From: an uncultured Gammaproteobacteria bacterium | GTDB lineage: Bacteria > Cyanobacteriota > Vampirovibrionia > LMEP-6097 | Assembly (NCBI GenBank): GCA_964597205.1 | Contig: CAZQXM010000005.1 | Location: 1-34,863 of the forward strand | Direction of reading: 5' to 3' | DNA length: 34,863 nt | Shown: piece after piece, positions 9,801-29,465 of the stretch | Layout of the letters: every line of letters starts with the position of its first letter | How positions within the stretch are numbered: position 1 is the first letter of the stretch | The notes under the pieces: model-generated | The model's input: the letters and a program-made list of their open reading frames with translations, nothing else | What the model was told of the DNA's origin: nothing | The model's database searches: none | Made by a program: the position numbers and the translations under genes

Positions 9801-10793
9801 GTGTTGATTCTAGGCATAGAAACAAGTTGCGATGAGACAGCGGTTGCCATAGTAAAAGATGGCCGCGAGATGATCGCGAACGTAGTCTACACCCAAATCG
9901 AGAAACACAAGAAATGGGGTGGAGTGATACCTGAGATGGCATCAAGATTCCACTTAGAAGTTATAAGCCAAGTTATTCGTGAATGTTTGGAGAAAGCTAA
10001 TTGCAATATAGAGACTGATATAGATGCCATTGCTGTTACTCAAGGACCTGGACTCACTGGTTCGCTGCTGGTGGGAGCTAACGCTGCTAAGACTTTAGCT
10101 TGGTTATACTCTAAACCTATTATTCCAGTGAATCATCTCTTAGGTCATATCGCCGCTAATTATATAGGGACAGAAATCAAGCCACCGCTAATCTGTTTAT
10201 TAGTTAGTGGCGGGCACACGCAGATTATTCGCGTAGACTCTTATACAGAAATAGAAGTGATAGGTGAAAGTGTCGATGATGCTGCCGGTGAAGCTTTCGA
10301 TAAGGTCGCAAGGTTATTAGATTTGCCTTATCCTGGTGGTCCGCACCTCGATAAGCTGGCGCAATCTTGTCATCCTGAGCGTAGCGAAGGATCCCCCAAT
10401 TATGGTTTCAAAATCCCAGATATGCCAGGCTTAGATTTTAGTTTTAGTGGGCTTAAAACCGGAGTGCTTAGATTAAAAGAAAAAATCGGCGAAGAAAAAT
10501 GGCAAGCAGATAAAGCTATGATTGCTAAAGCTTTTCAAGATACAGTGGCTGAGTTTTTGTTTAAAAAAGTATCAGAAGCAAGCAGGATAACTAAGTATAA
10601 TAAGATTATTATCGCTGGTGGAGTAGCTGCCAATTCCTCTGTGCGTAAGCGTTTCAGTGAAGGATTTACAGCACCTTCGTTCCAGATATATTATCCTCCA
10701 CTTAGTTTATGCACGGATAACGCTGCGATGATTGCAGCAGCGGCTTATCATCTCAAATCTTGCGATTTGGGTTTTGAGGTTTATTCTAGATAG
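9801..10793 (+). CDS. tsaD: tRNA t6A37 threonylcarbamoyltransferase TsaD
   Basis: LGIETSCDET, GPGL, VSGGHT, DDAAGEAFDK, FSFSGLKT, GGVAAN and CTDNAAMI. Confidence 0.97.
   Translation: MLILGIETSCDETAVAIVKDGREMIANVVYTQIEKHKKWGGVIPEMASRFHLEVISQVIRECLEKANCNIETDIDAIAVTQGPGLTGSLLVGANAAKTLAWLYSKPIIPVNHLLGHIAANYIGTEIKPPLICLLVSGGHTQIIRVDSYTEIEVIGESVDDAAGEAFDKVARLLDLPYPGGPHLDKLAQSCHPERSEGSPNYGFKIPDMPGLDFSFSGLKTGVLRLKEKIGEEKWQADKAMIAKAFQDTVAEFLFKKVSEASRITKYNKIIIAGGVAANSSVRKRFSEGFTAPSFQIYYPPLSLCTDNAAMIAAAAYHLKSCDLGFEVYSR
10369..10393 (+). repeat. Repeat family A half-copy inside tsaD, translated as CHPERSEGS
   Basis: GTCATCCTGAGCGTAGCGAAGGATC matches arm 518-542 at 23 of 25 nt. Confidence 0.88.
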
Positions 10794-10843
10794 TAAAGCG
10801 TGACATTAGTCACGTTTTACAACACGAGTGCAAAATTTAAGCT
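10791..10843 (-). repeat. Hairpin repeat family B copy filling the convergent tsaD/rlmD gap
   Basis: Stem 10793-10804/10809-10820 with loop ATTA. Minus-strand leader AGCTTAAATTTTGCACTCGTGTT is shared with the copies at 15732 and 29381. Confidence 0.85.
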
Positions 10844-12273
10844 GCAACCCTCTTCAGTAATGCTACAGCTTCTACATGATAAGTATGCGGAAACATATCT
10901 ACTGGCTGAATCTCTTGCACTTCATAGCCATAGCGTTCCATATATTTAATATCACGAGTGAGAGTAGCAGGGTTACAACTCACGTAAATAATATTAGGTG
11001 AAGCGATTTTGCCAAGTGCATCAAGAACGTCATTTGTACAGCCTTTGCGCGGTGGATTCACCAGGACCAGATCTAAGGCTTTGCGATCACGTAAGAACTG
11101 CGAGCGCGCGACGAACTCTTCAATATGCTGCTCTACTTCACCAGTTTTGAACTGTACAGAATTCAGCTTATTCAATTCGGCATTAGCTATACCATTACGC
11201 ACAGCAGCATCTACTACTTCTATAGCAGTGATTTGCATTAGCGGATATACCGAGGCTAGCGATAAAGCTAAAGTGCCTATACCAGCATAAGCATCAAGAA
11301 CTTCTGCGCCGACTGGGTTAAGCTCCTCAGTCTCAATCAGAGACTCAACTTGAGCCTTAACTACATCAATAATTTTGGCAAATTGATCATTATTAATCTG
11401 AAAAAAACTAGTTGGTGAAATCTTAAAACTAAGATCAGCAAGTTTATCTTCGATAATACCAGAACCCGCAAGCACCACTGTGCGCTCACCGAAAATCACA
11501 TTAGTAGAACCATCATTGTAGTTCAAACAACAACCTTTAAGCTGTGGATATTTAGCCATCAAGCTTGCAAAAATAGTTTTGAGGCGTTCTTCTACAGCAC
11601 TATTCTCAGGCTTAGACATTTCTCTTCCACGTACTATGAGGGTGAGAAGGACTTGCGACTGATCTTGGTTCGCTCTTAGATTAATGTGACGTAAGAGAGG
11701 CTTACCGATAAATTTTTGTGAGCAAAGTTCTTTAACATCCTCTACGATGGCATCAAAAATCTCATATTGCACCGGGCAATGTTTGACATTCACCAGCTCA
11801 TGAGTATTGCGCTTGTAATAGCCAGCAAGTAATCTGCCACTGGATTCTACAGTTTCAACCGGATATGTGATCTTATTGCGATAGCGCCAAGGATCATCCA
11901 TACCGATAACCGGCGCCACTAACATATGCGGCGGGCGCGGACTAGTGAGATCGGCTTTACGCACGAAATCTATGACATTCTGGCGTTTAAATTCAAGTTG
12001 TTCATCATAACTAATATGCTGCCACTGACAACCACCACAAATCTTGTGCAGTTTGCATGGTGGATCAATCATGCGCAATGGACTTGAATTCAATACTTCA
12101 TCAATCTCAGCATAAGCAAAACTACGACGATGATCATAGATATGCGCCTTCACCGTATCACCCGGACAAGCATTCTCAACGAAAACCACCAAGCCATCAT
12201 CAAGATGACTAACAGCATGGGCACCATGCGCCATAGATTCTATTTCAAGAGTTATATCAGTCATCACGGTCAT
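10837..12273 (-). CDS. rlmD: 23S rRNA m5U1939 methyltransferase RlmD (TRAM domain plus Fe-S)
   Basis: C-x5-CGGC..QH, YRNK, SFFQIN, DAYAGIG, NPPRKG, YVSCNPATLTRD and DMFPHTYHVE. Confidence 0.95.
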   Translation of the reverse strand: MTVMTDITLEIESMAHGAHAVSHLDDGLVVFVENACPGDTVKAHIYDHRRSFAYAEIDEVLNSSPLRMIDPPCKLHKICGGCQWQHISYDEQLEFKRQNVIDFVRKADLTSPRPPHMLVAPVIGMDDPWRYRNKITYPVETVESSGRLLAGYYKRNTHELVNVKHCPVQYEIFDAIVEDVKELCSQKFIGKPLLRHINLRANQDQSQVLLTLIVRGREMSKPENSAVEERLKTIFASLMAKYPQLKGCCLNYNDGSTNVIFGERTVVLAGSGIIEDKLADLSFKISPTSFFQINNDQFAKIIDVVKAQVESLIETEELNPVGAEVLDAYAGIGTLALSLASVYPLMQITAIEVVDAAVRNGIANAELNKLNSVQFKTGEVEQHIEEFVARSQFLRDRKALDLVLVNPPRKGCTNDVLDALGKIASPNIIYVSCNPATLTRDIKYMERYGYEVQEIQPVDMFPHTYHVEAVALLKRVAA

Positions 12274-13391
12274 GAGAGCACCAATACCTTATCTATAGCA
12301 CGCTTGATTAGCTCACTACCAGCCAGATTCACCTGATTATAGCCATTAGAGAGATAGGCTCGGCGCTGCTCCAGATCCTTAGGAAACTCGGCCTCAAGAT
12401 CAGCTAAGGCTGTATCAGTCTGCTGTGCCACACGTTTAACTGCGTTAGCCCAAGCTGGAATTTCAACTTCAGCTAAATCTACATTAGTAGGTTTTTCTGC
12501 TGGCGGGCATGCTGATGGGATCTGCGGCACTGGGGTAATTAGAACAACTTCAGTATGTGGTTTGAGCAATTCTACTACTGCTGTCATAAATACTTCAAAA
12601 GACAATAAAGCTGCGTGACCAAACCAAGCATCATTCATACCAAAAGATATAAAAGTGATATCAGGTTTATAGTTCAAAACATCACGCTTAAGATAGAGTA
12701 GAGCATCAAGAGCAGAAGCGCCAGAAATACCACAATTAGCAATGGTCGCCTTGGTGTTTAACTGTTGCGACCAGAGATAATGATAGGTCTGCTCATAATG
12801 CAGTTCCCAAGCAGGTTGCAAGCCAAGAGTAACTTGATCACCCCAAGCTACTACGCGCAGAGGCTTACTAGGGTCTTTATGCTTAAACTGAATGGTCTTG
12901 GATTTAAAATTAGCCGCGTCTAACTTAGGGACTAACTGAGAGAGTACGTGATTAATCGGCGTGATGTCTTCACCTAAACGCAATGTACAATATGCAGTCA
13001 TCGCTAAAGCTACGCGCGCCGAATTGTAACTATTAGGATCTAGACTCTTGGCGAACTCTGCATTCTGCTTAAGTAGTTTATTAGCCAGTTCCAACCACTT
13101 CTCAGGATCAAGTGGGTTATTAAGTCTGAACTCTTCAACGAATAAAGCTAAATCCTCAGGCAAAACTTCAAGCACATTAGTAATGCGATCAAGAACGTCA
13201 TTAAGTTTCTCAGCGATCTCAGGATTCTTAGATAAATGCAGCCCATTTTGATAGCAATGGAAAGCATGAGGAAAGAACCTAAGCTCCATAGCGAAATTAC
13301 CAGCATTCACCCACTCATCAACGCTATGCAGAGTCGGATCACCTTTAAGTGATTGCAGCATTATTTGAGTGAGTTTGAGGTCGCGGATCAT
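12270..13391 (-). CDS. Helical (TPR-like) N-terminus plus SGNH/GDSL-fold domain with degenerate catalytic residues
   Basis: SGNH-like blocks VVAWGDQVTLG, NCGISG, ISFGMNDA and SNGYNQVNLAG. Its stop overlaps the rlmD start. Confidence 0.7.
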   Translation of the reverse strand: MIRDLKLTQIMLQSLKGDPTLHSVDEWVNAGNFAMELRFFPHAFHCYQNGLHLSKNPEIAEKLNDVLDRITNVLEVLPEDLALFVEEFRLNNPLDPEKWLELANKLLKQNAEFAKSLDPNSYNSARVALAMTAYCTLRLGEDITPINHVLSQLVPKLDAANFKSKTIQFKHKDPSKPLRVVAWGDQVTLGLQPAWELHYEQTYHYLWSQQLNTKATIANCGISGASALDALLYLKRDVLNYKPDITFISFGMNDAWFGHAALLSFEVFMTAVVELLKPHTEVVLITPVPQIPSACPPAEKPTNVDLAEVEIPAWANAVKRVAQQTDTALADLEAEFPKDLEQRRAYLSNGYNQVNLAGSELIKRAIDKVLVLS

Positions 13392-13441
13392 CTATAGCCT
13401 TACTTATACTATCTTTTATATTCGTGATCTTGACAAAATGA

Positions 13442-13467
13442 GCCAGATAATGGGAGGATTATCTGGC
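13442..13467. promoter_or_regulatory. Perfect 10-bp inverted repeat with GGGAGG loop just upstream of ORF 13481
   Basis: GCCAGATAAT-GGGAGG-ATTATCTGGC. TTGACA at 13430-13435 and AAGGA at 13470-13474. Confidence 0.55.
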
Positions 13468-13480
13468 GTAAGGATTTTTT

Positions 13481-15124
13481 ATGGTTACAGAACTACAAGT
13501 CAAACAAGCAACTGAAATACTTCGACAACGAGATTTTACTAAACCTGGTTTATCAGCTAGCGCTATGCCTGCTGATTGGCTTGATCAGGTAACTAAGTTT
13601 TTAAAGAGAAAACCAACTCCTGAAGAGATTGCTCAAAGGATCGCAGCGGAAGCTGGTAATACGTCGATCGGCTCATGGAATACTGAAGTTTGGGCTAATG
13701 AGGTTAAAAATGCTTTTAATGAAGGTTATGAACCTTCAACAACTACGGCTGAAAACGAATCCTTAAAACACCAATATCGCATAATGCTGCCCTTAGATTA
13801 TGAGCAAGTACCTACTGCCTTAACTGAAATGGGTTTTGATATACCAATGCTCATTAGATCAGAAATGGATTCTGATATTGGCAAGCTTAGAATTGGTAAA
13901 GATTTATTTACTAAAAAATCAAAAGAATCTGATTTATTATTTTCTGTTTTAACTGGACATATACCCGAAACTATAGATGGTCAACCAATTCCTAAAGATC
14001 ATGTGACTTATCAAAGCTTACAAGTAGCTCAACAGGTATTTGCTGAAATTATTCAAGATCTTACTGGTGATCCTAATATCAAAACGATATTGAATCCCGA
14101 GTCTAAAGACTTTGATAAGCTACGCGAACTGTTTAAAAATAACCCGCTATTTCAAAATTGGGCACATGAATTGCCAGGACTCTTTGTCGCTATATCACGC
14201 TATTTAAGAGGTGACATTGATAAAGAAGGTTTGAGGACTCGTGTCTATGGCAACCTCTTGCATAATGGACCAGCTTCAAAACAATCATTCTGGAAATTTA
14301 TCACCAGCATACTTAAACCAGAAGTTGCAACTGAGTTGCTAAAAGGTGGTTTATTCCATGATGGCAAGGAAGCTGCTTATAGAATCTCAAAACACCCTGG
14401 AGCCATCTTACATAATCTTCTCGATAGATATGACCAAGCAACCCATGGCACTATCAAGATCGCTCATGAAATCAAACCAGCACTTACTCTTACGAAACTT
14501 CATGATGAGCTATTTGTAGGTAATCCTAAAGGAACTATTGACCAGCTAGAAGAATTACATCAACATATTAACCAATTAGAAACCAAAGAAAAACTTATTT
14601 CTAAATTACCTAAAAGTCCAGAATCTGCTGCCGCCGCTGAAAAAATCAATAAAAGTACTTCGATTGTTTCAGCACGCCAGAAGAGATTCTTATCAGCATT
14701 AGCTGAGAAAATGATTAGCCGTTTAGAAACTTATCAAAAGTTCGTTGCAGAGAATGTGAAATATTCAACCGAAGCTGCCGTAACAACAGCAGATGGAAGA
14801 CAAGAACAAGCAGTACAAATGGTATTTAATCATCGTAGTGCAACTGGTGTTCGTTATACTGATCGTTACACAGCTGTATACGACATTACTAATCCTAAGA
14901 GTCATATATTTAAGAGCGGTACTCATACACAATATGTTCAGGGTGAAACATTAAATGGCACATATGAACTTCAGGGTGAAGCTGAACATGAAATTTTAAA
15001 GAATTGGGCTTTAAGATCTAGTTTCAATACTATAAATGCTGAAGAACTTAACTATGCTCCAAACGGCTATATGCATGGTCGTATGGAAACATTAATACAC
15101 AAAGTATTGAATTTCCTAGGCTAG
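13481..15124 (+). CDS. Hypothetical protein, possibly divergent HD-superfamily
   Basis: 547-aa ORF with an SD. Ordered motifs KHQYRI, SDIGK, KDH, LLHNGP and LDRYD resemble an HD domain. Confidence 0.7.
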   Translation: MVTELQVKQATEILRQRDFTKPGLSASAMPADWLDQVTKFLKRKPTPEEIAQRIAAEAGNTSIGSWNTEVWANEVKNAFNEGYEPSTTTAENESLKHQYRIMLPLDYEQVPTALTEMGFDIPMLIRSEMDSDIGKLRIGKDLFTKKSKESDLLFSVLTGHIPETIDGQPIPKDHVTYQSLQVAQQVFAEIIQDLTGDPNIKTILNPESKDFDKLRELFKNNPLFQNWAHELPGLFVAISRYLRGDIDKEGLRTRVYGNLLHNGPASKQSFWKFITSILKPEVATELLKGGLFHDGKEAAYRISKHPGAILHNLLDRYDQATHGTIKIAHEIKPALTLTKLHDELFVGNPKGTIDQLEELHQHINQLETKEKLISKLPKSPESAAAAEKINKSTSIVSARQKRFLSALAEKMISRLETYQKFVAENVKYSTEAAVTTADGRQEQAVQMVFNHRSATGVRYTDRYTAVYDITNPKSHIFKSGTHTQYVQGETLNGTYELQGEAEHEILKNWALRSSFNTINAEELNYAPNGYMHGRMETLIHKVLNFLG

Positions 15125-15194
15125 ATCAGAAGATTATATCAATATAATGATCCAATCCATTAACCCGTCCATATAGGTTATAATCAACCAAGTC

Positions 15195-15329
15195 ATGAAA
15201 CGCACACTTAGAGGCAGTACACGCAAAAGAAACAGAACTAGCGGCTTTAGAGCACGCATGAGCACTCCAGGTGGCCGTAAAGTTCTTAGTCGCCGTCGCG
15301 CTAGAGGTCGTCACCAGATCGCTATCTAA
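15195..15329 (+). CDS. rpmH: 50S ribosomal protein L34 (absent from ORF track)
   Basis: Manual translation gives [44 protein letters not shown]. Directly upstream of rnpA. Confidence 0.97.
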
Positions 15330-15344
15330 TTCAAGGTTTATTCC

Positions 15345-15731
15345 ATGTTAAGCAAATCCGAGCGCCTGAAGTATCGTGGTTTGTTTTTGCAGGCTTATCA
15401 AAAAGGTAAAAAACTTAGTTCAGCTAATTTGATCGTTAACTACACGCCGACGCGTGCTGACTGTGCTGAGCGCTTACCCTTCGTCGGTTTTAGTGTCTCT
15501 AAGAAATATTCTAAGAAAGCTGTTTTGCGTAATCTAGTGAAACGCCGCTTACGTGAGATCTATAGACTTTATCGTCTCGACGAAAGTAAACAAAAAAAAC
15601 TAAAATCCATAGGCTTACTAGTAATCGCTGTGCGCGGTTCTATTACTGATCCCAAAGATCCGCAAGAAGAGAGTAGATGGGCGTATAGTAGTCTCAAAAA
15701 AGAATTGGAAGCGTTACTGGAAAAAATTTGA
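15345..15731 (+). CDS. rnpA: Ribonuclease P protein component
   Basis: ERLK...F, GFSVSKK and KAVLRNLVKRRLRE (RNR motif). Canonical rpmH-rnpA order. Confidence 0.93.
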   Translation: MLSKSERLKYRGLFLQAYQKGKKLSSANLIVNYTPTRADCAERLPFVGFSVSKKYSKKAVLRNLVKRRLREIYRLYRLDESKQKKLKSIGLLVIAVRGSITDPKDPQEESRWAYSSLKKELEALLEKI

Positions 15732-15793
15732 AAGCTTAAATTGTGCACTCGCGTGGAAAGCGCAAAAACGTGACTTAGGTCACGTTTTTGCTA
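15732..15793 (+). repeat. Hairpin repeat family B, full copy
   Basis: AAGCTTAAATTGTGCACTCGCGTGGAAAGC then GCAAAAACGTGAC-TTAG-GTCACGTTTTTGC-TA. Perfect 13-bp stem at 15762-15791. Confidence 0.9.
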
Positions 15794-16536
15794 TGCATCC
15801 CTGCCGGCACATTAGATCTAGCAGCTGCTCGTGATTGAGCAGGCTGGTTACGGCGGGCTTGAGCAGCGGCGATTTCAGCTTCACCAGTTGCAACTTGCTG
15901 TCCCATAAAGGGTCCTAGAACCTTAGCAATGAAATTAGGCATTTCATAATTGAGGATACTGAAGAATTTACGACGCTGATCCATATTAGCAATCTTAGGC
16001 AGCCAGCTCTTCAGCGCATCCTCAGCAGCGATAATCACTGGATCGTTTGCTAGTTTATTAGGGAAGAGTATACGAGAAATAAAGTTTTGTTTGCTGTTTC
16101 TTTGATCTTTGATAATTTTAATTAAAGATTCGCAAGCCTCAACAGCATAAGTAGTTGGACCGTAAGGCATGTTAGCCAGACCACCGAAACGTTTTAGTTC
16201 TTTAACTTTGGCATCGGTAGATGAACCTAAACCGAGAATGAATTTTACAAAAGTCCAAACATAATGGAATGGATTCCATGACACAGCGAAAGATTTACGA
16301 AGTAAGGCGACCTCTTGAGAAAACTCGCGAGTATCTAAAGTATTTTCGTCAGTTGGTGACTTAGCTGCCAAATGTAATTCTTTGAGTTTCTCAAAGAAAG
16401 TAACCATAGGGTCAACGAAAGACTGAGCACCAGGCATCATAGTCGTTATTAACTCTCGAATACCAGTTTTGGCACCAGGGGCTATCGTCGCCTTGAGGGC
16501 CTGGAAGAGGTTAGATGTGGTGGTTCCTACAGCCAT
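15775..16536 (-). CDS. Hypothetical protein; last residues and stop codon come from repeat B
   Basis: 253-aa ORF with an upstream extended -10 (TGtTAATAT). No known motif. Confidence 0.7.
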   Translation of the reverse strand: MAVGTTTSNLFQALKATIAPGAKTGIRELITTMMPGAQSFVDPMVTFFEKLKELHLAAKSPTDENTLDTREFSQEVALLRKSFAVSWNPFHYVWTFVKFILGLGSSTDAKVKELKRFGGLANMPYGPTTYAVEACESLIKIIKDQRNSKQNFISRILFPNKLANDPVIIAAEDALKSWLPKIANMDQRRKFFSILNYEMPNFIAKVLGPFMGQQVATGEAEIAAAQARRNQPAQSRAAARSNVPAGMHSKNVT

Positions 16537-16587
16537 AGCTGCGCTACGAGCCTCCAGCTCGTGATATACATATTAACACATTAAGGC

Positions 16588-18342: not shown

Positions 18343-18764
18343 TAGCCTTCCTTACTAGCCAAGCACGCCAGCTCAGCAACCACCATAATAATATTTAAGT
18401 ACATTAGTGATGGCATACTAGCGATCATAAAATAGTTAAGATGCAAAATCACCGCTAACCAAGTTGCCATGCGCATCGGGAAGCCAATAAAAAAAGCACC
18501 AGCAATAAACATTTCAGCATGCTTAACAAACCAAGCAAAAATATATGCGTTAGGAATAATTACAGTCTGGAAAATTTTAGTATAAGGATTATGTCCGCGC
18601 ATTAAGATGTCATCGCGCAAAGTTAAAAAATACTCCTGCGCTGCTGCACCGAAACTTGGATCAGAGAATTTAGGGTACGCATTCAAGAAAAATATCAGCG
18701 CGATAGTCCAGCGCAGTATAAATAACCATGCCAGCGCTTTGGGTGCTACTTTTTCGTCAGCCAT
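18342..18764 (-). CDS. DoxX-family membrane protein
   Basis: LR......F.....K N-terminal pattern, E..I.....IG...R motif and about four hydrophobic segments. TAATG coupling to the binding-protein gene. Confidence 0.72.
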   Translation of the reverse strand: MADEKVAPKALAWLFILRWTIALIFFLNAYPKFSDPSFGAAAQEYFLTLRDDILMRGHNPYTKIFQTVIIPNAYIFAWFVKHAEMFIAGAFFIGFPMRMATWLAVILHLNYFMIASMPSLMYLNIIMVVAELACLASKEG

Positions 18765-18787
18765 AGCTATATTCTAATGTGAAATCA

Positions 18788-18850
18788 GTCTTAGCACAAA
18801 TGTGACATACGTCACGTTTGTGCGCTTGAAGTCGGGAGTGCACAATCTTA
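18788..18850 (-). repeat. Hairpin repeat family B copy
   Basis: Stem GCACAAATGTGAC-ATAC-GTCACGTTTGTGC (18794-18823). Minus-strand leader ATTGTGCACTC...AAGC. Confidence 0.85.
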
Positions 18851-18854
18851 CACT

Positions 18855-18907
18855 TTGCACTCATGGTTGACAGCGCAGAATTGACACGTATGTGTCAATT
18901 CTGCTAA
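18855..18907 (+). repeat. Hairpin repeat family B copy, inverted relative to its neighbour
   Basis: TTGCACTCATGGTTGACAGC then GCAGAATTGACAC-GTAT-GTGTCAATTCTGC-TAA. Perfect 13-bp stem at 18875-18904. Confidence 0.85.
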
Positions 18908-18957
18908 CTCCGGCACCTCGGGTTCGTGCGCCTAGCATCCGAAACAAAATACTGATT

Positions 18958-20106: not shown

Positions 20107-20254
20107 GGTTTTGAGCCTTAATATCCCGTAGGACAGGCAAGAATTGTAACATGCAAAAACTCTAGCGAAGCAGAAGCTTAAACTCCGCTTTAGGATTATA
20201 AATATCCGCGACGTAAATGTTTAAGATAATATAAAATGTACTATATTTATTATT

Positions 20255-20938: not shown

Positions 20939-20959
20939 TGCGCTACAATTATCCAGACT

Positions 20960-21943
20960 ATGACTTTAATGGCAAGGTCAGTTGTCGATAAGACAGCTGA
21001 GAAGCAAGAGTTATTCAACAGAGTGCGCGAGCTGGCGAAAACCAAGAACGCCGTTATTCTTACGCATATTTATCAGCGTCTTGAAGTTCAGCGCGTGGCG
21101 GATTTTGTTGGTTACTCATTAATGCTCTCTAAGAGTGCAGCAGAAACTGACGCCGATATTATTGCTTTTTGTGGTGTGCATTTTATGGCGGAGACTGCTA
21201 AGCTGCTCAGCCCTACTAAGAAAGTTCTACTACCAGATATTCAATCTGGCTGCCCGATGGCAGATATGATTAACGTCGATGATTTGCGTTTGTTTAAAGC
21301 GAGTCACGAAGGCGCACCTGTGGTCTGTTATGTCAACAGCTCGGCAGCTGTGAAAGCCGAGTCGGATATTTGCTGCACCAGCACTAACGCTGTAGATATA
21401 GTGCGCTCGCTAAGTGAGCGTGAGGTGATTTTCGTTCCTGATAAGGGTCTAGGTGAGTGGGTGCAAGAACAAGTGCCCGACAAAAAACTACATATCTACG
21501 ATGGTTTCTGTCCGACACACTGGCAGATCACCGCCGCTGAAATCGACAAGCAGCGCGAAGAGTATCCAGAAGCTCTCATCATTGCTCATCCTGAGTGCGA
21601 TCCAGAGGTTTGGCGTAAGGCGGATTTCGTCGGTAGTACTTCGCAGATTTACAAATTCGTTGAAGAAAACCCAGGTAAGAGTTTCGTGATTCTTTCTGAG
21701 CAAGGTCTAGTAGCGCGCATGCAAGCTGATATGCCAGACAAGATTATCACTACAGTATTCCCGCTGCCGCTCTGTCCTAATATGAAATATCACAACCTCG
21801 AGAATCTCTATGATGCTATCGATCAAGAGTTCACTGAGATTAATATCCCAGAGCGCATCGCAGCACCTGCGCGCGCGACTATAGAGCGGATGATGGAAAT
21901 TAGTAACCGTAAGAAAATCTGGAGTGGACCTAGCAAAAACTAG
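20960..21943 (+). CDS. nadA: Quinolinate synthase
   Basis: FCGVHFMAETAK, GCPMA, YVNS, CTSTNA, FCPTH, AHPEC, GSTSQI and CPNMK. Confidence 0.96.
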   Translation: MTLMARSVVDKTAEKQELFNRVRELAKTKNAVILTHIYQRLEVQRVADFVGYSLMLSKSAAETDADIIAFCGVHFMAETAKLLSPTKKVLLPDIQSGCPMADMINVDDLRLFKASHEGAPVVCYVNSSAAVKAESDICCTSTNAVDIVRSLSEREVIFVPDKGLGEWVQEQVPDKKLHIYDGFCPTHWQITAAEIDKQREEYPEALIIAHPECDPEVWRKADFVGSTSQIYKFVEENPGKSFVILSEQGLVARMQADMPDKIITTVFPLPLCPNMKYHNLENLYDAIDQEFTEINIPERIAAPARATIERMMEISNRKKIWSGPSKN

Positions 21944-21971
21944 CCTGACGGCTAGTTTTTGCGCTTTAAAC
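21931..21971 (-). repeat. Hairpin repeat family B copy between convergent nadA and radical SAM genes; may act as terminator
   Basis: Perfect stem GCAAAAACTAGCC-TGAC-GGCTAGTTTTTGC (21933-21962). Contains the nadA TAG. Confidence 0.85.
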
Positions 21972-21977
21972 TTCGCG

Positions 21978-22913
21978 CTAGCTTAATACTGCTACCCTGC
22001 CCTCCAAATATTTATAAAGCTTCGTGAGAAACCCCTGCTTCTTCCCGCTCATCGCCCACTCTGGCGCAATCAATTCTCCGCGCGGACCTTCGCCCATAAC
22101 TCGCTGTATCACCCAGTGCTTAGGTATGCGCGCAAGAAACTCCGCAAGCAATTCTATATATTCGTCTTCTTCGAACACTGCTAATTCACCATTGAGGTAA
22201 TCTATCTCCATCGGTGTGCCTTTAAAGATGCAGAGTTGGTGGATCTTAAGATGGTCTATCGGTAGTAGAGCAAGACGCTCAGCGGTCTCGAGTATCATCT
22301 CACGGGTCTCACCAGGCAAACCCAAAATCACATGAGTGCAAATTTTAAGATGCGGATTTTTAAGCGCAGCGAGACGATTAACTGCATCGACGAAATCTTC
22401 ATAAGTGTGGGCGCGATTGATTCGTTCTTGAGTGATGTTGTGCGAAGTCTGAACTCCAATATCTACCCAGAGTTCTAATGGCTCTTGTCTGTTACGTACT
22501 AAACCTGCATACTCATTTAGCAGAGCTAGAACATCATCACCAACACAATCTGGCCGAGTGCCGATGGCAAGCACGCGCACACTAGGATGATCTATTGCTT
22601 GATCGTAAAGCCGGCGCAATTCTTCAACTGGCGCATAAGTATTAGTGAAAGACTGGAAATAAGCGATAAACTTATCGACACCGAACCTGCGCCCCTGCTC
22701 TTCTATACCTTGAAGTAGCTGAGCGCGAATAGTATCAGTAGCATTCTGGGCTAGTGAGCTTGAGCCTTCATCGGTGCAGAAGGTGCAACCACCAATAGCC
22801 TTAGTACCGTCGCGGTTAGGACAGGTAAAGCCACCCTCTAGGGTAACGCGCTGCACCCCGCCGCCAAAGCGCTCTCGCAGGTATTGATTTAGCGTAATAT
22901 AAGGGGCTTGCAA
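21978..22913 (-). CDS. TIGR01212-family radical SAM protein (YhcC/YtqA-like)
   Basis: GFTCPNRDG....GCTFC, YFQSFTNTY, IGTRPDC, HVILGLPGE and KIHQL. Confidence 0.92.
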   Translation of the reverse strand: MQAPYITLNQYLRERFGGGVQRVTLEGGFTCPNRDGTKAIGGCTFCTDEGSSSLAQNATDTIRAQLLQGIEEQGRRFGVDKFIAYFQSFTNTYAPVEELRRLYDQAIDHPSVRVLAIGTRPDCVGDDVLALLNEYAGLVRNRQEPLELWVDIGVQTSHNITQERINRAHTYEDFVDAVNRLAALKNPHLKICTHVILGLPGETREMILETAERLALLPIDHLKIHQLCIFKGTPMEIDYLNGELAVFEEDEYIELLAEFLARIPKHWVIQRVMGEGPRGELIAPEWAMSGKKQGFLTKLYKYLEGRVAVLS

Positions 22914-22979
22914 GGGTGAAAATTATATCATTACAAAATGATTGACCAGCCTGCTGGTCTTATGTTAAATTAGTTGTTT

Positions 22980-23708
22980 ATGGCTGGATTTCACCTGCAC
23001 ATTATAAACAATCCTACGGGTCACCCAGCACAACAGGTTTATTACCACGGAACCAACTTACCTTCTGTTGACTCTAGCACTGAAAAACAAATAGTCAAAA
23101 GTATAATCCCTGTTGATCAACTTTTGGCACCCAATTATTTGCACGGCACTGTACTAAAAAATATAGATCATATTATTCGACTTGCAAACAGCGTTGATAA
23201 TGCAGAGACTGATACAGACAAAGAGACTGCTGGAAGAATACAAGGGTTTCTTTTGCAGATAGCTGACGCGCTCAGAGTAAAAGTTGAAGATGCTTTGCAA
23301 GAGATTACAATTAAATCCAAATCAATAGTCTTTCAACTTCTTACGCCAGCTGGAGGAACAGGTCAGGCAAGACAGTTAATGGCACTTGCAGGTGATAAAC
23401 CTCTAAGAACTTGCACCGTAAATCTTGATGACAACAATCAAGTGCAATCAATTCGCTTAGATGATTCTCTTAATGCTTGCACACAATCCCTACATGCTTC
23501 AACTGTTGATGCAGAGTATGTTAATGGATTACCTTCAAGGGTAGCAGTTCAAACAGCCGTGCCTAAGAGTTCGGATCAGGTCTTACTAAGCCTCTTTGAA
23601 GCACCAACTGCAGACAAAGAAAGTCTGCTTATGACCAGCATTAGAACTAATTCTCAGCTTACCTCCGCACATACCTCACGTCTTCCTAAAAGCCGCTTGC
23701 TACAATAA
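22980..23708 (+). CDS. Hypothetical protein
   Basis: ORF of about 242 aa. ATG 22980 lies 8 nt after TGtTAAATT. Confidence 0.68.
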   Translation: MAGFHLHIINNPTGHPAQQVYYHGTNLPSVDSSTEKQIVKSIIPVDQLLAPNYLHGTVLKNIDHIIRLANSVDNAETDTDKETAGRIQGFLLQIADALRVKVEDALQEITIKSKSIVFQLLTPAGGTGQARQLMALAGDKPLRTCTVNLDDNNQVQSIRLDDSLNACTQSLHASTVDAEYVNGLPSRVAVQTAVPKSSDQVLLSLFEAPTADKESLLMTSIRTNSQLTSAHTSRLPKSRLLQ

Positions 23709-23714
23709 CTACTT

Positions 23715-24467
23715 ATGTCCAACTCTCTTCCTATAGTCCTTGGCGTAACTGGTGCTAGCGGAGCCGTTTATGGACTTAAATTATTAGAGTTTTTACTAGT
23801 GCATGATTATCAGGTTGAATTAGTTTATTCTGATAACGCTAAACTAGTTGCCTATCATGAGCTTGGTTATGATTTTCGTAACACTAACAAACAAAAGTTT
23901 AAGCAGCAGTTAATTGGATTGTTTCGCAATAAGACTGATAGTCATAACAAGAAAGGGATCCCTAGCTGCGGCACGGAGGTCCTTCGCGATGCTCAGGACG
24001 ACAGATGTTTTGAGAACAATCTCCGCATCTGGGATCACAGTGATGTCGCAGCTAGTGTCTCTAGCGGTTCCTATAAAACCCAAGGCATGATTATCGCGCC
24101 AGCAAGTATGGGCACCATCGCTAATATCGCTGCGGGCACCAGCAACAACCTTATTGCGCGCGCTGCTGATGTGGTGCTTAAAGAGAGACGCAAACTTATA
24201 CTCGTTGCTCGCGAGACACCGCTTAGTACTATTCACTTGCGTAATATGCTTACGCTAAGCGAGATGGGGGCTGTAGTTTTGCCTGCTGCTCCTGGTTTCT
24301 ACCAGCATCCTAAAACTATTGAGGATCAGGTGAATTTTGTTCTGGGTAAAACCATAGATGCTTTTGGTTTAGATCATGATTTGTTTACGCGCTGGACCAA
24401 CCATGGTCATAGCAAAAACGTGACAGACGTCATCCTGAGCGAAGCGAAAGGATCCCCCGTACAATGA
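23715..24467 (+). CDS. ubiX: Flavin prenyltransferase UbiX with repeat-derived insert and tail
   Basis: GVTGASG, SSGS, APASMGT, RAADVVLKERRKL, RETPL, HLRNM and PGFYQHP. Confidence 0.95.
   Translation: MSNSLPIVLGVTGASGAVYGLKLLEFLLVHDYQVELVYSDNAKLVAYHELGYDFRNTNKQKFKQQLIGLFRNKTDSHNKKGIPSCGTEVLRDAQDDRCFENNLRIWDHSDVAASVSSGSYKTQGMIIAPASMGTIANIAAGTSNNLIARAADVVLKERRKLILVARETPLSTIHLRNMLTLSEMGAVVLPAAPGFYQHPKTIEDQVNFVLGKTIDAFGLDHDLFTRWTNHGHSKNVTDVILSEAKGSPVQ
23941..24002. repeat. Decayed full copy of repeat family A, in frame inside ubiX
   Basis: Right arm GGTCCTTCGCGATGCTCAGGACGAC (23978-24002). Spacer CCTAG...GCACGG resembles TCTAG...GCACGG of the 518 copy. Eroded left arm GTCAT...AGGGATC. Confidence 0.78.
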
Positions 24468-24468
24468 C
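24410..24468. repeat. Chimeric repeat B/repeat A junction encoding the UbiX C-terminus
   Basis: TAGCAAAAACGTGAC-AGAC-GTCA (family B) runs directly into GTCATCCTGAGCGAAGCGAAAGGATC (family A, 24429-24454). Confidence 0.85.
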
Positions 24469-24482
24469 TTATAATATTTCCC

Positions 24483-25652
24483 ATGCAAAGCCTCTCCGAG
24501 TTCCTAACTAAAGTCAATCAAGAACTCAAAAACACTAATCTTTTTCGTAATATCGAAGATAAAGTTATTAGTGATGATGAAATAAGTTTTAGTGGTAATG
24601 ATTATCTCGGTCTCGCCCGCGAGCATTACAGTGCAGGGCTTACAGATTATTGGGGTAGCACTGGCTCGCGCCTCACTACTGGCACGCACCAGGTCCATTT
24701 AAATCTTGAAGCATTAATTGCGCGCTGGAAAAAAACCGAGGCAGCAATATTATTTAGTAGCGGATATATGGCTAATCTCGGGGCGATTAGTGTACTGCTT
24801 GATTCGCGTGATGTGGTTTTCGTAGATGAGGTGGCTCATGCCTGCATTTATGAAGGTATTAGGCTAAGCAAAGCTCGTAAAAATATTTTTAGACATAATG
24901 ATGTCACTCATCTTGAGCAGCTTTTAGCTAAATCTCGCAACGATGGCGAGAAAGCTCTAATTATTACTGATGCCGTATTTAGCATGGACGGCGATAGAGC
25001 ACCCTTAGCTGAAATATCTAAACTTGCTCATAAATATAATGCTAGTCTCTATGTCGATGAAGCGCACGGCGCTGGCGTGCTTGGTGCTCGCGGGGCTGGT
25101 TTGGTCGAAGAACTAATCGACGAAGGTTTACTAAAAGCTGGCGATGTGGAAATTCAGATGGGGACTTTCTCTAAAGCCATAGGGCTTGAAGGTGGTTATA
25201 TCGCAGGCTCAGAAGAATTGATTACTTATTTGCGCAATAAGGCGCGCACTTTCATTTATAGTACTGCGGCGGCACCAATAGTAGTCGCTGAAGCTTATGA
25301 GCGCGTGCGCAGATTATGCGATGGCGAGCTTAATGATCGCAGAGAAAAATTAGTTACCAATATAGAATATTTCCGCGCGCAAATCGCCGCTAAAGGTTTT
25401 ACTGTTTACCATAGTGCCTGCCCTATTGCTGAAGAGGATACCAAGCATAAGGTCTATAACGATTTAACTGCTATCTTCGCAGTCTTCGTCGGTGATACCG
25501 ATAAGACTATGGCTGTGGCTGCCAAGCTACGTAAGGCTGGAATTTTCGTAACACCGATACGCCCACCAACAGTGAAGCAGGCGCGCTTGCGTATATCTAT
25601 GAGTGCCCGTCATAGTAAAGAGCAGATAGATAAATTACTCTCGCTACTGTGA
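24483..25652 (+). CDS. bioF: 8-amino-7-oxononanoate synthase (PLP class II)
   Basis: FSGNDYLGLA, GSRL, FSSGYMAN, VFSMDGD, DEAHG, GTFSKA and IRPPTV. Confidence 0.92.
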   Translation: MQSLSEFLTKVNQELKNTNLFRNIEDKVISDDEISFSGNDYLGLAREHYSAGLTDYWGSTGSRLTTGTHQVHLNLEALIARWKKTEAAILFSSGYMANLGAISVLLDSRDVVFVDEVAHACIYEGIRLSKARKNIFRHNDVTHLEQLLAKSRNDGEKALIITDAVFSMDGDRAPLAEISKLAHKYNASLYVDEAHGAGVLGARGAGLVEELIDEGLLKAGDVEIQMGTFSKAIGLEGGYIAGSEELITYLRNKARTFIYSTAAAPIVVAEAYERVRRLCDGELNDRREKLVTNIEYFRAQIAAKGFTVYHSACPIAEEDTKHKVYNDLTAIFAVFVGDTDKTMAVAAKLRKAGIFVTPIRPPTVKQARLRISMSARHSKEQIDKLLSLL

Positions 25653-25690
25653 TGACCGTGATAAAATCACAAATCCAAAGGGGCTAAAAC

Positions 25691-26434
25691 ATGGCTAAAA
25701 AACTTTTTATAGACTTAGAAACCACTGGCATTGATGCTGTCAAAGACCGCATCTGCCAAATCGCGATCATTAATGTCGATGGCACAGAATTCTCTTCTCT
25801 AATCAACCCAGAGAAAGTAATTCCTGAACAAGCAACTGCCATCCATGGCATTACTAATGCGATGGTACTCGACGCGCCTAAGTTCGGTGAAGTCGCTGAG
25901 AGGGTGCGCGAGATGCTAGCTGCTGCCGATCATTTCGTAGCTTACAATGGGATCTTCGATTTTCAGTTCTTGCAGTCAGAACTCAATCGCACTATAGGTT
26001 TCGATCTTAATGAGCGCAATTATACTTTTGTTGATCCATACAAGATTTTTCGCAAAATGTTTCCGCATAATCTTTCTAATGCTTATCACTATTACACTGG
26101 CAAGCCTCTTGAGAATGCGCATAACGCTATTGTCGATATTCGCGCTACTCGTGAAATATTAGAGCAGCAAGAAAATAAATACCCTGAATTGTTTAGTCAT
26201 GGTTACGAGCATGTAGCGCGTGAGACTATTGGCAGCACTTCAGTATTAGGTAAATGGTTTGAAGTTAAAGAAGATCAAGCAACATATTTCAAACAAGGCA
26301 AGCATAAAGGTGAAAAAGTATCTCTTGCTCAAGACGGCTACCTTAAATGGATAAACGGGCTAGAAGACATTACAGTTTCTGAGCGCCGCTTCATTAATGA
26401 GATCCTTTCGCAGCTAAAACAGCCGGCTCGTTAA
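25691..26434 (+). CDS. DEDDh 3'-5' exonuclease (DnaQ/ExoX-like)
   Basis: DLETTG, IHGIT, N..FD and AHNAIVD, with a C-terminal F..GKHKG....YLKW module. Confidence 0.9.
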   Translation: MAKKLFIDLETTGIDAVKDRICQIAIINVDGTEFSSLINPEKVIPEQATAIHGITNAMVLDAPKFGEVAERVREMLAAADHFVAYNGIFDFQFLQSELNRTIGFDLNERNYTFVDPYKIFRKMFPHNLSNAYHYYTGKPLENAHNAIVDIRATREILEQQENKYPELFSHGYEHVARETIGSTSVLGKWFEVKEDQATYFKQGKHKGEKVSLAQDGYLKWINGLEDITVSERRFINEILSQLKQPAR

Positions 26435-26580
26435 GAAGTCTTAACCTAAATACCTGAAAACCCCTAAAAAGCGCGTATTATAGGCCTTTTTCTTTAAAAA
26501 TATTTAGCTTTCAGGCTATCAATCCTAGCTGGAGCATAACCTTATATACTCACGAATCACCAAGAGGGACATTAAAAATT

Positions 26581-27117
26581 ATGCTTCAAGTAAAAGAAAT
26601 AGAGAACAAATTCATTTTCAAAAAATTAATTAGCGATGTTAGCTATATTAGCGATGCTGAAGGCCAAGTTCTTGGCTTCAATAGACAAGCTAATGGCAAC
26701 AATGTGATTTTTACTAAAGACCTTGAAGGTATTGAAGTTGCTATTGAGCATTGTCCTGATGGCACCAAGATTTTCCACATGGAGAAAGATTCTAAGGGTC
26801 TGCCTGCAATGCATGAGTTCAAACCAGATGGCACTGAGTTTATTTATCTTTTCGATTCTTCTAAAATTCTAGAGAAAGTAGTAGAGCTTAAAACCAACGG
26901 GGACAAACTTACTTATTGGTTCTCTAAGAATGGTGATGAGATCACTCAAGAGCAAAGACAAAAAGGTGGCATTCTATTCAAGATGCGCACTTCTTTCGCT
27001 GAGGCGCTTGTTTGGCTGCATAGCGATGGTGATGTAGAAAGCCATGGTCACCCTAAAGTAATAGAACATTTGCAAAAAGTTTTCGGTCAATACCTTGATG
27101 GTGTTGCTCTAATCTAA
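26581..27117 (+). CDS. Hypothetical protein with beta-hairpin (P/T/S-D/N-G) repeats
   Basis: SD AGAGGG upstream. Repeats HCPDGTKIF, FKPDGTEFI, LKTNGDKLT and LHSDGDVES. Confidence 0.72.
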   Translation: MLQVKEIENKFIFKKLISDVSYISDAEGQVLGFNRQANGNNVIFTKDLEGIEVAIEHCPDGTKIFHMEKDSKGLPAMHEFKPDGTEFIYLFDSSKILEKVVELKTNGDKLTYWFSKNGDEITQEQRQKGGILFKMRTSFAEALVWLHSDGDVESHGHPKVIEHLQKVFGQYLDGVALI

Positions 27118-27621
27118 TTAATATTTACTTGTAGCTCTATCAATATCACGTTGCTGAGCTTTGCGTTTAAGAGTATCGCGCTTATCGTGTTGTTTTTTAC
27201 CTTCAGCAAGACTTAGACTTACCTTAGCGTAATTGCCTTTAAAAAAAACCTTGGTCGCTACTAAAGTTTTATTAGTGGTAGCTAGCTCGAATTCTATTTT
27301 GTCTAATTCACCACGATTAAGTAGAAGTTTTTTGGCGCGCATTGGATCATGCTGCTTAGCACTATGAGAATACTCAGCAATCTGGCAGTTAAATAACCAC
27401 GCCTCGCCATCAATAATCTTGGCGTAACAAGCTTTAAGCTGCACCTGCCCGAGCCGGACGGACTTAACCTCAGAACCTTCTAATATGATCCCGGCTATTA
27501 TCTCTTTACCTAAATGAAAATCGTGACGGGCTTTACGGTTTTGCGCGACAGTAGCCTTACCGCTCTTAGTATCGGCGGCTCGTTTCTCTTTGAGCTTTTT
27601 TTGTTGTTTGGCGCGGCCCAT
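27118..27621 (-). CDS. smpB: SsrA-binding protein
   Basis: NRKARHDF, AGIILEGSEVKSVR, R.KKLLL and GKKQHDKR. Confidence 0.96.
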   Translation of the reverse strand: MGRAKQQKKLKEKRAADTKSGKATVAQNRKARHDFHLGKEIIAGIILEGSEVKSVRLGQVQLKACYAKIIDGEAWLFNCQIAEYSHSAKQHDPMRAKKLLLNRGELDKIEFELATTNKTLVATKVFFKGNYAKVSLSLAEGKKQHDKRDTLKRKAQQRDIDRATSKY

Positions 27622-27678
27622 ATTTACTTATTATAGTAGGCGGTCTAGCCTTAAAATTTCGGGTATCATATTAGTTAT

Positions 27679-28422
27679 ATGGCGGAAACAGTTAAGTTTA
27701 AGGTTAAAAGACAAGATAGTCCCGATAGCTCATCATATTATGACAACTTTGAAGTGCCACTAGAGCCGAGCATGAATGTGATCTCCTTATTAATGGCGAC
27801 GCGTGCATATCCAGAAACTACAGATGGTAAAGCTACTACGCCGGTCTGTTTTGAATCTAGTTGTTTAGAAGAAGTTTGCGGTGCTTGCACCATGGTTATC
27901 AACGGTAAAGTAAGACAGGCTTGCACAGCGCTAGTCAGTCAGTTCGAGCAACCAATTAAACTTGAGCCGATGTCTAAGTTTCCTGTTAAGCGTGACTTGG
28001 TGGTGAATCGTTCCGTGATGTTCGACAACCTGAGAAAAGTTAAAGCTTGGGTAGATGTCGATGGTATCTACGATCTAGGCGAAGGTCCTCTAGTGCAGCC
28101 AGCTATTCAAGAAGATAGCTACCTTCTAAGTCGCTGTATGACTTGTGGTTGCTGCCTTGAAGTTTGCCCGCAGTGGACTTACGACAATAGTTTTATCGGT
28201 GCGCAAGCTATATCTCAAGCGGTCTTGTTTAACAGTCTACCTAGTGGTGCGAATCTCAGAACCGATCGTACTCAAGCGCTAATCGATAATGGGCTTAACG
28301 ATTGTGGTAACGCACAAGAATGTGTGAAAGCTTGTCCTAAAGAAATTCCTCTTACTGAGAGTATCGCTAAAGCTAATCGTGAAGCGACTATACAATCGAT
28401 AACTAGCTTCCTTAATGTCTAA
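27679..28422 (+). CDS. sdhB: Succinate dehydrogenase Fe-S subunit (Bacillus-type)
   Basis: SCLEEVCGACTMVING..RQAC, CMTCGCCLEVCP and CGNAQECVKACPK. Confidence 0.94.
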   Translation: MAETVKFKVKRQDSPDSSSYYDNFEVPLEPSMNVISLLMATRAYPETTDGKATTPVCFESSCLEEVCGACTMVINGKVRQACTALVSQFEQPIKLEPMSKFPVKRDLVVNRSVMFDNLRKVKAWVDVDGIYDLGEGPLVQPAIQEDSYLLSRCMTCGCCLEVCPQWTYDNSFIGAQAISQAVLFNSLPSGANLRTDRTQALIDNGLNDCGNAQECVKACPKEIPLTESIAKANREATIQSITSFLNV

Positions 28423-29284
28423 AGCACTATTATTTCTGGCTCCTTGGGCTATTGCTTTTATATTATTTTTCTTTGGACCTATAATTGCTAGTCTATATTT
28501 GTCTTTCACGAATTTCGATGGGCTTAATACAGCTCAGTGGCTGGGTTTGGCGAACTACCATGAAATGCTCGCACGCGATCCGATGTTTTGGACTTCGCTT
28601 AAAGTTACATTAAGTTTTGCAGTGGTCGCTTTACCACTTGGAACCATCTTCGCCATCTTTGTAGCTATCTTATTGAATCAACGCATCATCGGACAAAGCG
28701 CTTATCGCTCATTGATCTATCTGCCTACTATTATTCCTATAGTAGCCTCGAGCGTAGTTTGGTCTTGGGTATTTAAAGCTGATCAGACTGGTCTATTAAA
28801 TAATTTACTAATGCCAGTTTATAAGCTAGTCGGTATGCCAGCACCAATGTGGCTCGCTGACCCGCATTGGGCTTTGCCAGCATTAATCATTATGAGTTTT
28901 TGGTCACTAGGAAATCCGATTGTGATCTACTTGGCTGGTCTGCAAAATATTCCAGAGTCTCTATACGAAGCCGCTGAGATTGATGGTGCTGGGAGTTTGG
29001 CGAAACTCTGGCATATCACTCTACCAATGTTATCGCCGACTATTTTTTTCAATGTTACAGTCGGACTTATTCAAGTCTTTCAATATTTCGTACCGGCTTA
29101 TGTGATGACTTCTGGCGGACCGCAAGGCGCGACTATGTTCTACTCGCTCTATGCTTATCAAGTGGCTTTCGATGATTTTAGAATGGGTTATGCTTCGGCG
29201 CTAGCTTGGGTTCTGTTCTTAGTGGTTTTAGTCGCTACGATGCTGAGTTTTAGGTTGTCGAGGGATTTGGTGCATTATAGTTAG
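28415..29284 (+). CDS. Carbohydrate ABC transporter permease
   Basis: FLAPW, GLANY and EAA loop LAGLQNIPESLYEAAEIDGA..HITLP. Confidence 0.92.
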   Translation: MSKALLFLAPWAIAFILFFFGPIIASLYLSFTNFDGLNTAQWLGLANYHEMLARDPMFWTSLKVTLSFAVVALPLGTIFAIFVAILLNQRIIGQSAYRSLIYLPTIIPIVASSVVWSWVFKADQTGLLNNLLMPVYKLVGMPAPMWLADPHWALPALIIMSFWSLGNPIVIYLAGLQNIPESLYEAAEIDGAGSLAKLWHITLPMLSPTIFFNVTVGLIQVFQYFVPAYVMTSGGPQGATMFYSLYAYQVAFDDFRMGYASALAWVLFLVVLVATMLSFRLSRDLVHYS

Positions 29285-29380
29285 AACCGGTCACAGATTG
29301 TGATCAATTTTAATTGTGGTTAAGATTGAGCTTGATGCTAGAGCAATTAGGATTGGCTTAGCTCAAGGCGTAAGAAAGCA

Positions 29381-29446
29381 AAGCTTAAATAGTGCACTCG
29401 TGTTGAAAGCGCAAAAACGAGCCGTCGGGCTCATTTTTGCTAAGAC
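29381..29446 (+). repeat. Hairpin repeat family B, full copy
   Basis: AAGCTTAAATAGTGCACTCGTGTTGAAAGC then GCAAAAACGAGCC-GTCG-GGCTCATTTTTGC-TAAGAC. Confidence 0.9.
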
Positions 29447-29465
29447 AATCAAAATCGCTCTAAAG

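Follow-up and report, generated by a model that had tools for sequence, protein, structure and literature searches.

Hairpin repeats of the REP class, probably selfish DNA, dispersed in the genomes of one Melainabacteria genus

REP (repetitive extragenic palindromic) elements are short palindromic stem-loop units present in high copy number. According to the survey of Di Nocera, De Gregorio & Rocco (2013, PMC3733652), REP families have stems of 6–13 bp, loops of 2–4 nt and subfamilies with alternative complementary stem residues. The same survey describes head-to-head dimers, in part of unlike units, with conserved spacers that have complementary ends. It also describes repeat ends which provide TAG stop codons and units found wholly within open reading frames (ORFs). 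REPs are reported there mainly between unidirectional and convergent ORFs, with a depletion between divergent ones. GTAG-tagged REPs have an unpaired terminal GTAG in more than 90% of the members of most families, and stems of 12–13 bp in family GTAG-24. CGTC-tagged REPs end in CGTC, TGTC or CCTC, with an 8–9 bp stem that opens with A-T pairs and a CCA-like tail, and are described as having no dedicated transposase. We have studied a stretch of 34,863 nucleotides, which we will call the window. It is contig C5 in the genome assembly of an uncultured bacterium of the Melainabacteria (1.80 Mb, 253 contigs, 41% G+C, estimated 92% complete). The window contains seven copies of a dispersed hairpin repeat, which we will call the hairpin family. 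It is a new family within the already known REP class, since all its behaviours are found among those which the survey reports for REPs. In our opinion it probably consists of non-autonomous selfish DNA repeats which have expanded in a single genus of Melainabacteria. We have found no description of such repeats for Melainabacteria in the literature.

An original prediction, made by reading the sequence of the window, had placed seven copies in it. All of them have been recovered, both by inspection and as matches of nhmmer with a hidden Markov model trained on 120 oriented copies. They are the following:

10791..10849, minus strand: copy with a 12-bp stem that has one G.T pair, arms 10793-10804 and 10809-10820, loop ATTA; nhmmer match 10796-10849, 25.4 bits
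15726..15796, plus strand: full singlet, leader 15732-15761, perfect 13-bp stem 15762-15774 / 15779-15791, loop TTAG, TA 15792-15793
18788..18861, minus strand: left half of a head-to-head doublet, TA 18792-18793, hairpin 18794-18823 with a GTGAC-type tip and one T.G pair, leader inward
18835..18908, plus strand: right half of the same doublet, leader, perfect 13-bp hairpin 18875-18904 with a GACAC-type tip, TA 18905-18906
21930..21970, minus strand: copy with a decayed leader, TA 21931-21932, perfect 13-bp stem 21933-21945 / 21950-21962; nhmmer match of 26.0 bits
24407..24432, minus strand: half copy, TA 24410-24411, one arm 24412-24424, the loop, and then only GTCA of the second arm
29379..29444, plus strand: full singlet, leader 29381-29410, stem 29411-29423 / 29428-29440 with one C.A mismatch, loop GTCG, TA 29441-29442; nhmmer match of 63.4 bits

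The stems are as they had been described. The leader was said to be largely lost in the copies at 21931 and 24410; the first of them is a minus-strand copy with a decayed leader and is not leaderless. The leader word is found three times in the window with up to three mismatches, where 0.04 matches are expected. The copy at 15726..15796, which begins directly behind the stop codon of rnpA, scores 69.6 bits with nhmmer and 78.8 bits with a covariance model; its DNA fold has an energy of -18.1 kcal/mol (z -5.65). The leader of the first copy is present as a reverse complement which reaches about position 10849, and the TAG stop of tsaD (10791-10793) is made up of the TA of this copy and its first stem G. 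The nadA ORF ends at 21943, within the stem of the copy at 21930..21970. The half copy is interrupted by another repeat, family A (24433-24451), and it encodes the C-terminal tail of UbiX; in a sister species of the same genus the hairpin found here is intact.

The hairpin family is real, abundant and well structured. In the whole genome 203 hairpins have a stem of 13 bp and a loop of 4 nt with no more than one mismatch, and 164 of them start with GCA; three mononucleotide-shuffled genomes contain only 4, 1 and 2. A pattern which joins the leader box with the hairpin gives 83 matches, compared with none for its reversed control. When sites are chosen by the leader alone we obtain 157, and 125 of them have at most two mismatches in the 13 pairs. 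The nhmmer search gives 222 members which do not overlap, or about one per 8 kb, and a leader is present in 169 of them. The repeat is thus a dispersed, REP-like family with hundreds of small copies in the genome, as had been expected, at a lower density than the one per 5 kb extrapolated from the window. It had been presented as an unrecognised family, and it has no match in Rfam at the gathering score across the window. At E values up to 1 over positions 15650-19000 there is only a chance match to InvR, away from the copies.

The repeat unit measures about 68 nt, because the copies cease to resemble each other at about -36 in the leader direction and at +2/+3 past the hairpin (7323 pairwise alignments). 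Its parts are, in this order, a leader of 36 nt which contains the boxes TTAGATT and TGCACTC, AGC, the 13-bp stem with a 4-nt loop, mostly GTNN, and TA. In the sense of the element the consensus is approximately gcAAAGCTTAGATTnTGCACTC, followed by 8–9 variable bases, AGC, the stem-loop and TA. A T is found 3' of the stem in all 120 oriented copies and the next base is A in 101 of them. The loop is GTNN in 72 of the 120 copies and the flipped form NNAC in 5, so that the hairpin has a sense. Leader types and stem-tip types combine in a mixed fashion, and RNAalifold finds no conserved helix in the leader.

Both arms of the stem change together, as it had been noted from the few copies of the window. 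In an alignment of 60 copies 98.8% of the cells are paired and 7 of the 13 pairs show double changes (112 such cells), a result which none of 500 shuffles reaches; when the partner is moved by 1–3 columns only 34–40% of the cells pair. These figures apply to a set in which 55 of the 60 rows were selected by the leader and hairpin pattern, which fixes or constrains 10 pairs. The three pairs free of the pattern (columns 57/80, 63/74 and 64/73) have 27, 28 and 19 double changes, with no unpaired cell. The idea that structure rather than sequence is selected was nevertheless overstated: the pairing is maintained, but 6 of the 13 stem pairs are invariant and the variable ones (5–7 positions) are limited to two to four states each. 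Subfamilies with alternative complementary stem residues and loops of 2–4 nt are also a feature of the REPs surveyed (PMC3733652). By analogy with the REP class, copies would be made in trans by an enzyme which recognises the extruded single-stranded hairpin together with its invariant flanks AGC and TA. Such a recognition would explain that pairing is kept while the paired bases change.

Two other ways of changing the stem were considered. Inversion of the hairpin would flip the loop and is ruled out by the 5 flipped loops against 72 in the usual sense. Regeneration of the stem by fold-back copying is unlikely, as the same C.C mismatch, accompanied by a GTAA loop, is common to the members of one subfamily.

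The ends of the unit set it apart from both tagged types of REPs, as these are described in PMC3733652. The end reads xTAG, where x is A in 59 copies, T in 45, G in 14 and C in 2 of the 120; the final G is the first base of the stem and is paired, in contrast with the unpaired GTAG tag. The CGTC-tagged REPs differ in their shorter stem and A-T opening: here the stem has 13 bp and starts with G-C and C-G, and the ends are AGC and TA. Compared with the REPs of the survey, the hairpin family also differs by a 36-nt conserved leader in each unit and by the predominance of singlets.

Neighbouring copies form 14 head-to-head pairs, 11 tandem pairs and one tail-to-tail pair. The head-to-head pairs are about 115 nt long with TA outside; 11 of the 14 have one fixed spacing, and the leaders form the conserved spacer. 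Where the doublets are clear, a GTGAC-type tip is found on the left hairpin and a GACAC-type tip on the right one. In the doublet of the window both leaders share their centre and make a third hairpin of 7 bp (GAGTGCA/TGCACTC); the whole region folds into three hairpins, the middle one from the two TGCACTC boxes, with -33.2 kcal/mol and z -6.61. The coexistence of singletons and head-to-head dimers of unlike units, with the tags outside and a conserved spacer with complementary ends, is again what the survey describes for REPs (PMC3733652). REP doublets forming hairpins (REPINs) are similar in their foldable inverted doublets, in singlets that keep a remnant of the partner and in the restriction to a genus, here with presence in both of its species. 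However, in the REPIN accounts (PMC3116915, PMC5581495) the inverted doublet is the prevailing form, of which singlets represent decayed remnants, whereas only 28 of our 222 copies are in head-to-head doublets, compared with 61% of the REPs in Pseudomonas fluorescens SBW25 (PMC3116915).

Doublets with inverted ends and TA on both sides might also suggest a classical miniature inverted-repeat transposable element (MITE), similar to the Correia elements and derived from an insertion sequence of the DDE type. In that case the doublet would represent the complete element, and TA the duplication of its target. Correia elements and other MITEs are indeed reported at similar densities (PMC10969869). 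We consider this origin very improbable. TA appears on both sides of a doublet because each of the two inverted units ends in TA, and the singlets, which are most of the copies, have no TA at their leader end. An insertion in a gene for an FGGY kinase, described below, shows no duplication. Neither of the two species of the genus has a gene with a DDE_3 or a TnpB-type domain (0 of 2 genomes for each domain), other transposase families not having been searched.

The position of the copies with respect to genes was studied with genes called crudely as ORFs of 90 aa or more (1681 genes, coverage 92%). The intergenic copies are distributed as 107 in tandem regions, 38 in convergent and 33 in divergent ones; the background has 858, 293 and 277 regions, which are the same proportions. 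There is no depletion between divergent ORFs (33 of 178 copies, 277 of 1428 in the background), in contrast with the REPs of the survey (PMC3733652). In the tandem regions 62 copies are opposite to the genes and 45 have the same sense, with no strand bias. The copies are thus spread at random over the non-coding DNA.

A structured RNA had also been proposed for these hairpins; it could be a terminator, an mRNA stabiliser or a small RNA which has spread through the genome. In favour of it, the hairpin is stable, many copies lie just behind stop codons and a few stems have G.T pairs. But the share of copies in divergent regions, where only promoters are found, is that of the background, no strand is preferred relative to transcription and copies in coding regions occur in both orientations. 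There is no T-run 3' of the stem, and the leader has no conserved structure with RNAalifold. The proportional spread, the lack of a T-run and the absence of Rfam matches speak against a terminator or an RNA gene and in favour of DNA which lands wherever it is tolerated; an RNA function appears very unlikely to us.

The hairpin family is concentrated in one genus. A strict pattern gives 55 matches in the sister species and none in 38 other relatives (22 of the same family, one of the same order and 15 of the same class). We have also applied a covariance model to 29 genomes belonging to the family, with 150 candidates scored in each of the two species of the genus. The source genome has at least 151 matches and the sister species at least 148; in the other genomes there are 39 matches in another genus, 1–6 in seven genomes and none in 19. 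The copies of other genera keep the hairpin, the preceding AGAGC and the following TA, with a different leader core. A scan of named genome contigs gave, among the 37 loci listed, 29 in a single metagenome-assembled genome (MAG) of a Candidatus Melainabacteria bacterium. The other eight are scattered matches at chance level, single ones in five organisms and three in one Paenibacillus genome; the latter are copies of a repeat which does not form the hairpin.

A comparison of filled and empty sites in relatives had been suggested, and it shows that the insertion sites differ between the sister species, which indicates that the element moved after the two species split. The sister genome (87% complete) aligns to the window at 71–79% identity over a syntenic contig. 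The doublet of the window and its surroundings (about 18787-18975) correspond to a few bases at the matching site of the sister. The latter has a copy where the window has 41 nt (27621-27662), and copies inside tsaD and inside ubiX which the window does not have. The copy at the 3' end of ubiX is common to both species, and by our count about one of eight sites in the compared region is shared. The make-up of subfamilies, judged by eye, is also different in the two species. The gene for the FGGY kinase gives the direction of the change: the source genome has an in-frame insertion of 81 nt at a site which is empty in the sister and in two other genera, whereas the sister gene contains two other copies, and the first of these sites is empty in the source genome and in both outgroups. 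This pattern shows that copies were added in both lineages after the split. No clean empty site was found among the contigs of four sequencing runs over positions 10000-29990. These contigs are short and of low depth; a variant contig of run X1 joins 29227 to 29460 and may or may not be without the 29381 copy.

These data also bear on the idea of a DNA site kept by selection because it serves the host, for example by binding a nucleoid or topology protein. The sequence of the hairpin is conserved across genera, and one orthologous copy, in a GidA-like gene, is almost unchanged between the species. Classical REPs also bind gyrase. They have been reported to recruit integration host factor as well (PMC3479197). 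However, most positions are not common to the sister species (about one of eight sites in the compared region), copies land inside genes, and the subfamilies, judged by eye, differ from one species to the other. We give hardly any credit to this explanation.

In the GTAG-tagged REPs and the REPINs the repeat flanks a cognate gene for a REP-associated tyrosine transposase (RAYT), a Y1 transposase of the HUH type, and the original prediction had pointed to such nucleases. The source genome has only one Y1 gene, on contig C166. It codes for a protein of 308 aa with the Pfam domain Y1_Tnp (PF01797, 47.1 bits), which resembles the NCBIfam model "REP-associated tyrosine transposase" with 67.7 bits, below its cut-off of 80. 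Mobilisation of REPs or REPINs by a RAYT would also agree with the head-to-head doublets, with an xTAG end that recalls the GTAG tag and with the absence of target duplication at the single resolvable insertion. Nevertheless the Y1 gene is not flanked by hairpin copies: it lies between perfect 15-bp inverted repeats of a different family, which we call family C (1832-1846 and 2776-2790, locus L088). The 15-bp word has about 10–12 copies in the genome, 10 of them exact. The whole Y1 unit, about 950 bp, is absent from the matching site of the sister species, where only about 90 nt separate the flanking genes; yet the sister has at least 148 copies and its own insertions. No Y1 gene reaches the threshold in the sister genome at its 87% completeness.

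The presence of Y1 genes does not follow that of the hairpin family either. Y1 matches are found in 18 of the 29 genomes of the family and 11 of these have no repeat match. Three of the four Y1 genes of relatives which we examined lie between their own long inverted repeats, which begin with GGGGTCG. There is no covariance-model match beside any of 10 Y1 loci, the best one having 14.4 bits at a distance of 1.4 kb. Together with the small share of copies in doublets (28 of 222), these results make a RAYT an improbable mobiliser of the hairpin family, and the enzyme involved is probably not the Y1 transposase of the source genome. The arrangement of the Y1 genes recalls instead the TIRtrons, tyrosine transposase units with flanking TIRs (PMC3733652), as those of the source genome and of three relatives lie between long inverted repeats which are also found elsewhere in moderate numbers. 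This likeness concerns the Y1 gene and family C, not the hairpin family, and the motif GGGGWSAS given in that survey is only partly matched (GGGGTCGY). Relatives carry 1–7 similar Y1 units with their own long inverted repeats. In the sister species (L120:1283-1366) a radical SAM (RimO/MiaB-like) ORF has, fused to its end, an N-terminal remnant of an IS200-type transposase with a length of 25 residues.

About a tenth of the copies are found in genes: 24 of the 222 are located 60 nt or more within ORFs which have 100 or more codons. With the called genes we count 20 copies inside, of which 15 run against the gene and 5 along with it. A Pfam scan of 12 of these ORFs shows that in nine the copy is placed inside or between the recognised domains of a conserved enzyme, namely a radical SAM protein, MetH, the FGGY kinase, Lnt, the GidA-like protein, an Orn/Lys/Arg decarboxylase, an Fe-S/CCG protein, CarA and an amine oxidase. 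Among the other three, GcvP is ambiguous, while in glutamine synthetase and trigger factor the copy precedes the first domain and is probably upstream of the true start. Alignments with orthologues show added residues in the host proteins. The reverse strand has one open frame, which reads approximately SKNVTDVTFLRSQPxVHNL, and peptides such as SKNVTDVTFLRSQ are predicted in CarA, the FGGY kinase or MetH. In UbiX (250 aa) an internal loop contains sequence which comes from repeats, and such sequence also makes up the C-terminal tail. At the gene ends, 21 of 161 intact ends provide the TAG stop of a called gene. Copies are thus kept where they are harmless, either at gene ends, where TA and the following G form a TAG stop, or in protein loops and linkers. 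Stops provided by repeat ends and copies wholly within ORFs are also reported for REPs (PMC3733652).

The in-frame colonisation of genes is presented as a hallmark of the Rickettsia palindromic elements (RPEs; PMC10969869). The hairpin family shows the same behaviour, as it enters unrelated housekeeping genes in frame, with one conserved peptide, in loops and linkers (PMC10969869, PMC3733652). The likeness is one of behaviour only. Its unit of about 68 nt is shorter than the approximately 150 bp given for RPE-1, the host lineage is different and only about a tenth of the copies are in genes.

Several observations do not fit easily with selfish repeats copied in trans. The copy in the GidA-like gene (contig C11, 22979-23027, locus L104; L152 in the sister) differs at 2 of about 62 positions between the species, while the flanking coding sequence differs far more. 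It has no synonymous change in 15 codons, and this single case hints at a constraint in place, unlike what is expected for pure junk. No strand bias is found with respect to the local GC skew (Fisher p 0.22) or to the majority strand of the genes (p 0.63). A mechanism based on single strands at the replication fork would predict one, but the test is weak because the skew barely tracks the gene strand in short contigs. The only insertion that can be resolved at the nucleotide level, the 81 nt in the FGGY kinase gene, has no target duplication, its exact ends being blurred by about 20% divergence. The differences between sites could partly be losses and not gains, and the genome is a MAG of 253 contigs with an estimated contamination of 5.4%. 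As for the enzyme, it had been proposed to look for a RAYT/Y1 or another nuclease gene flanked by copies. We have examined eight genes which lie between inverted copies, and none of them looks like a nuclease or a transposase: six have housekeeping functions (YbeY, L9, protoglobin, arginase family, AtpA and RuvC) and two have no Pfam match. Since no mobilising enzyme has been found, transposition in trans is inferred from the likeness to REPs.

There is a bolder interpretation, which we regard as rather unlikely: that the hairpin family is a third kind of REP, neither GTAG- nor CGTC-tagged and copied by an enzyme other than a Y1 transposase, whose hairpin sequence has been retained since before the genus arose, with at least some copies selected in place, including translated ones in essential enzymes.

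The repeat adds a REP-type family to the non-photosynthetic sisters of the cyanobacteria, for which we have found none described. It is abundant, it moved after the split of two species and it has no cognate RAYT, so it bears on the question of what mobilises the REPs which lack a dedicated transposase. It also offers a compact case of selfish hairpin DNA which, to judge from the reading frames, would be translated inside housekeeping enzymes. In practice such elements should be taken into account in the annotation of MAGs, as they interrupt assemblies, prolong or terminate ORFs and make proteins longer.

A second repeat, family A, is found at some of the same places. Its core is TCCTGAGCGNAGCGAAGGA, with GTCA before it and CC after it, and it occurs four times in the window:

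522-540: family A repeat
10373-10391: family A repeat, in tsaD
23980-23998, minus strand: family A repeat, in ubiX
24433-24451: family A repeat, in the ubiX tail

The core has 84 matches in the genome and none in a reversed control, with the stem variants ATCCT/AGGAT and ATTGC/GCAAT. It is translated inside genes as HPERSEGS or VILSEAKD. From a reading of its layout, family A would fit the CGTC/TGTC-tagged REPs. In tsaD, ubiX, carA, metH and the FGGY kinase gene a given protein loop or gene end is often occupied by the hairpin family in one species and by family A in the other. A special association of both families in the source genome is ruled out: 5 of the 222 hairpin copies are within 15 nt of a family A core, compared with 3.1 expected for random non-genic placement, and a stricter core leaves 3 of 222. 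As both families lie no nearer to each other than expected by chance, the sites in common look rather like permissive spots.

Six ORFs of the window, with 140–547 aa, have no Pfam match (13481-15124, 15775-16536, 18342-18764, 20255-20938, 22974-23708 and 26581-27117); the first three were also scanned with NCBIfam, with no match. Just 3' of the 29381 copy, in positions 29450-29500, there is a separate perfect hairpin (AGAGCGATCT ... AGATCGCTCT), which looks like an ordinary terminator stem.

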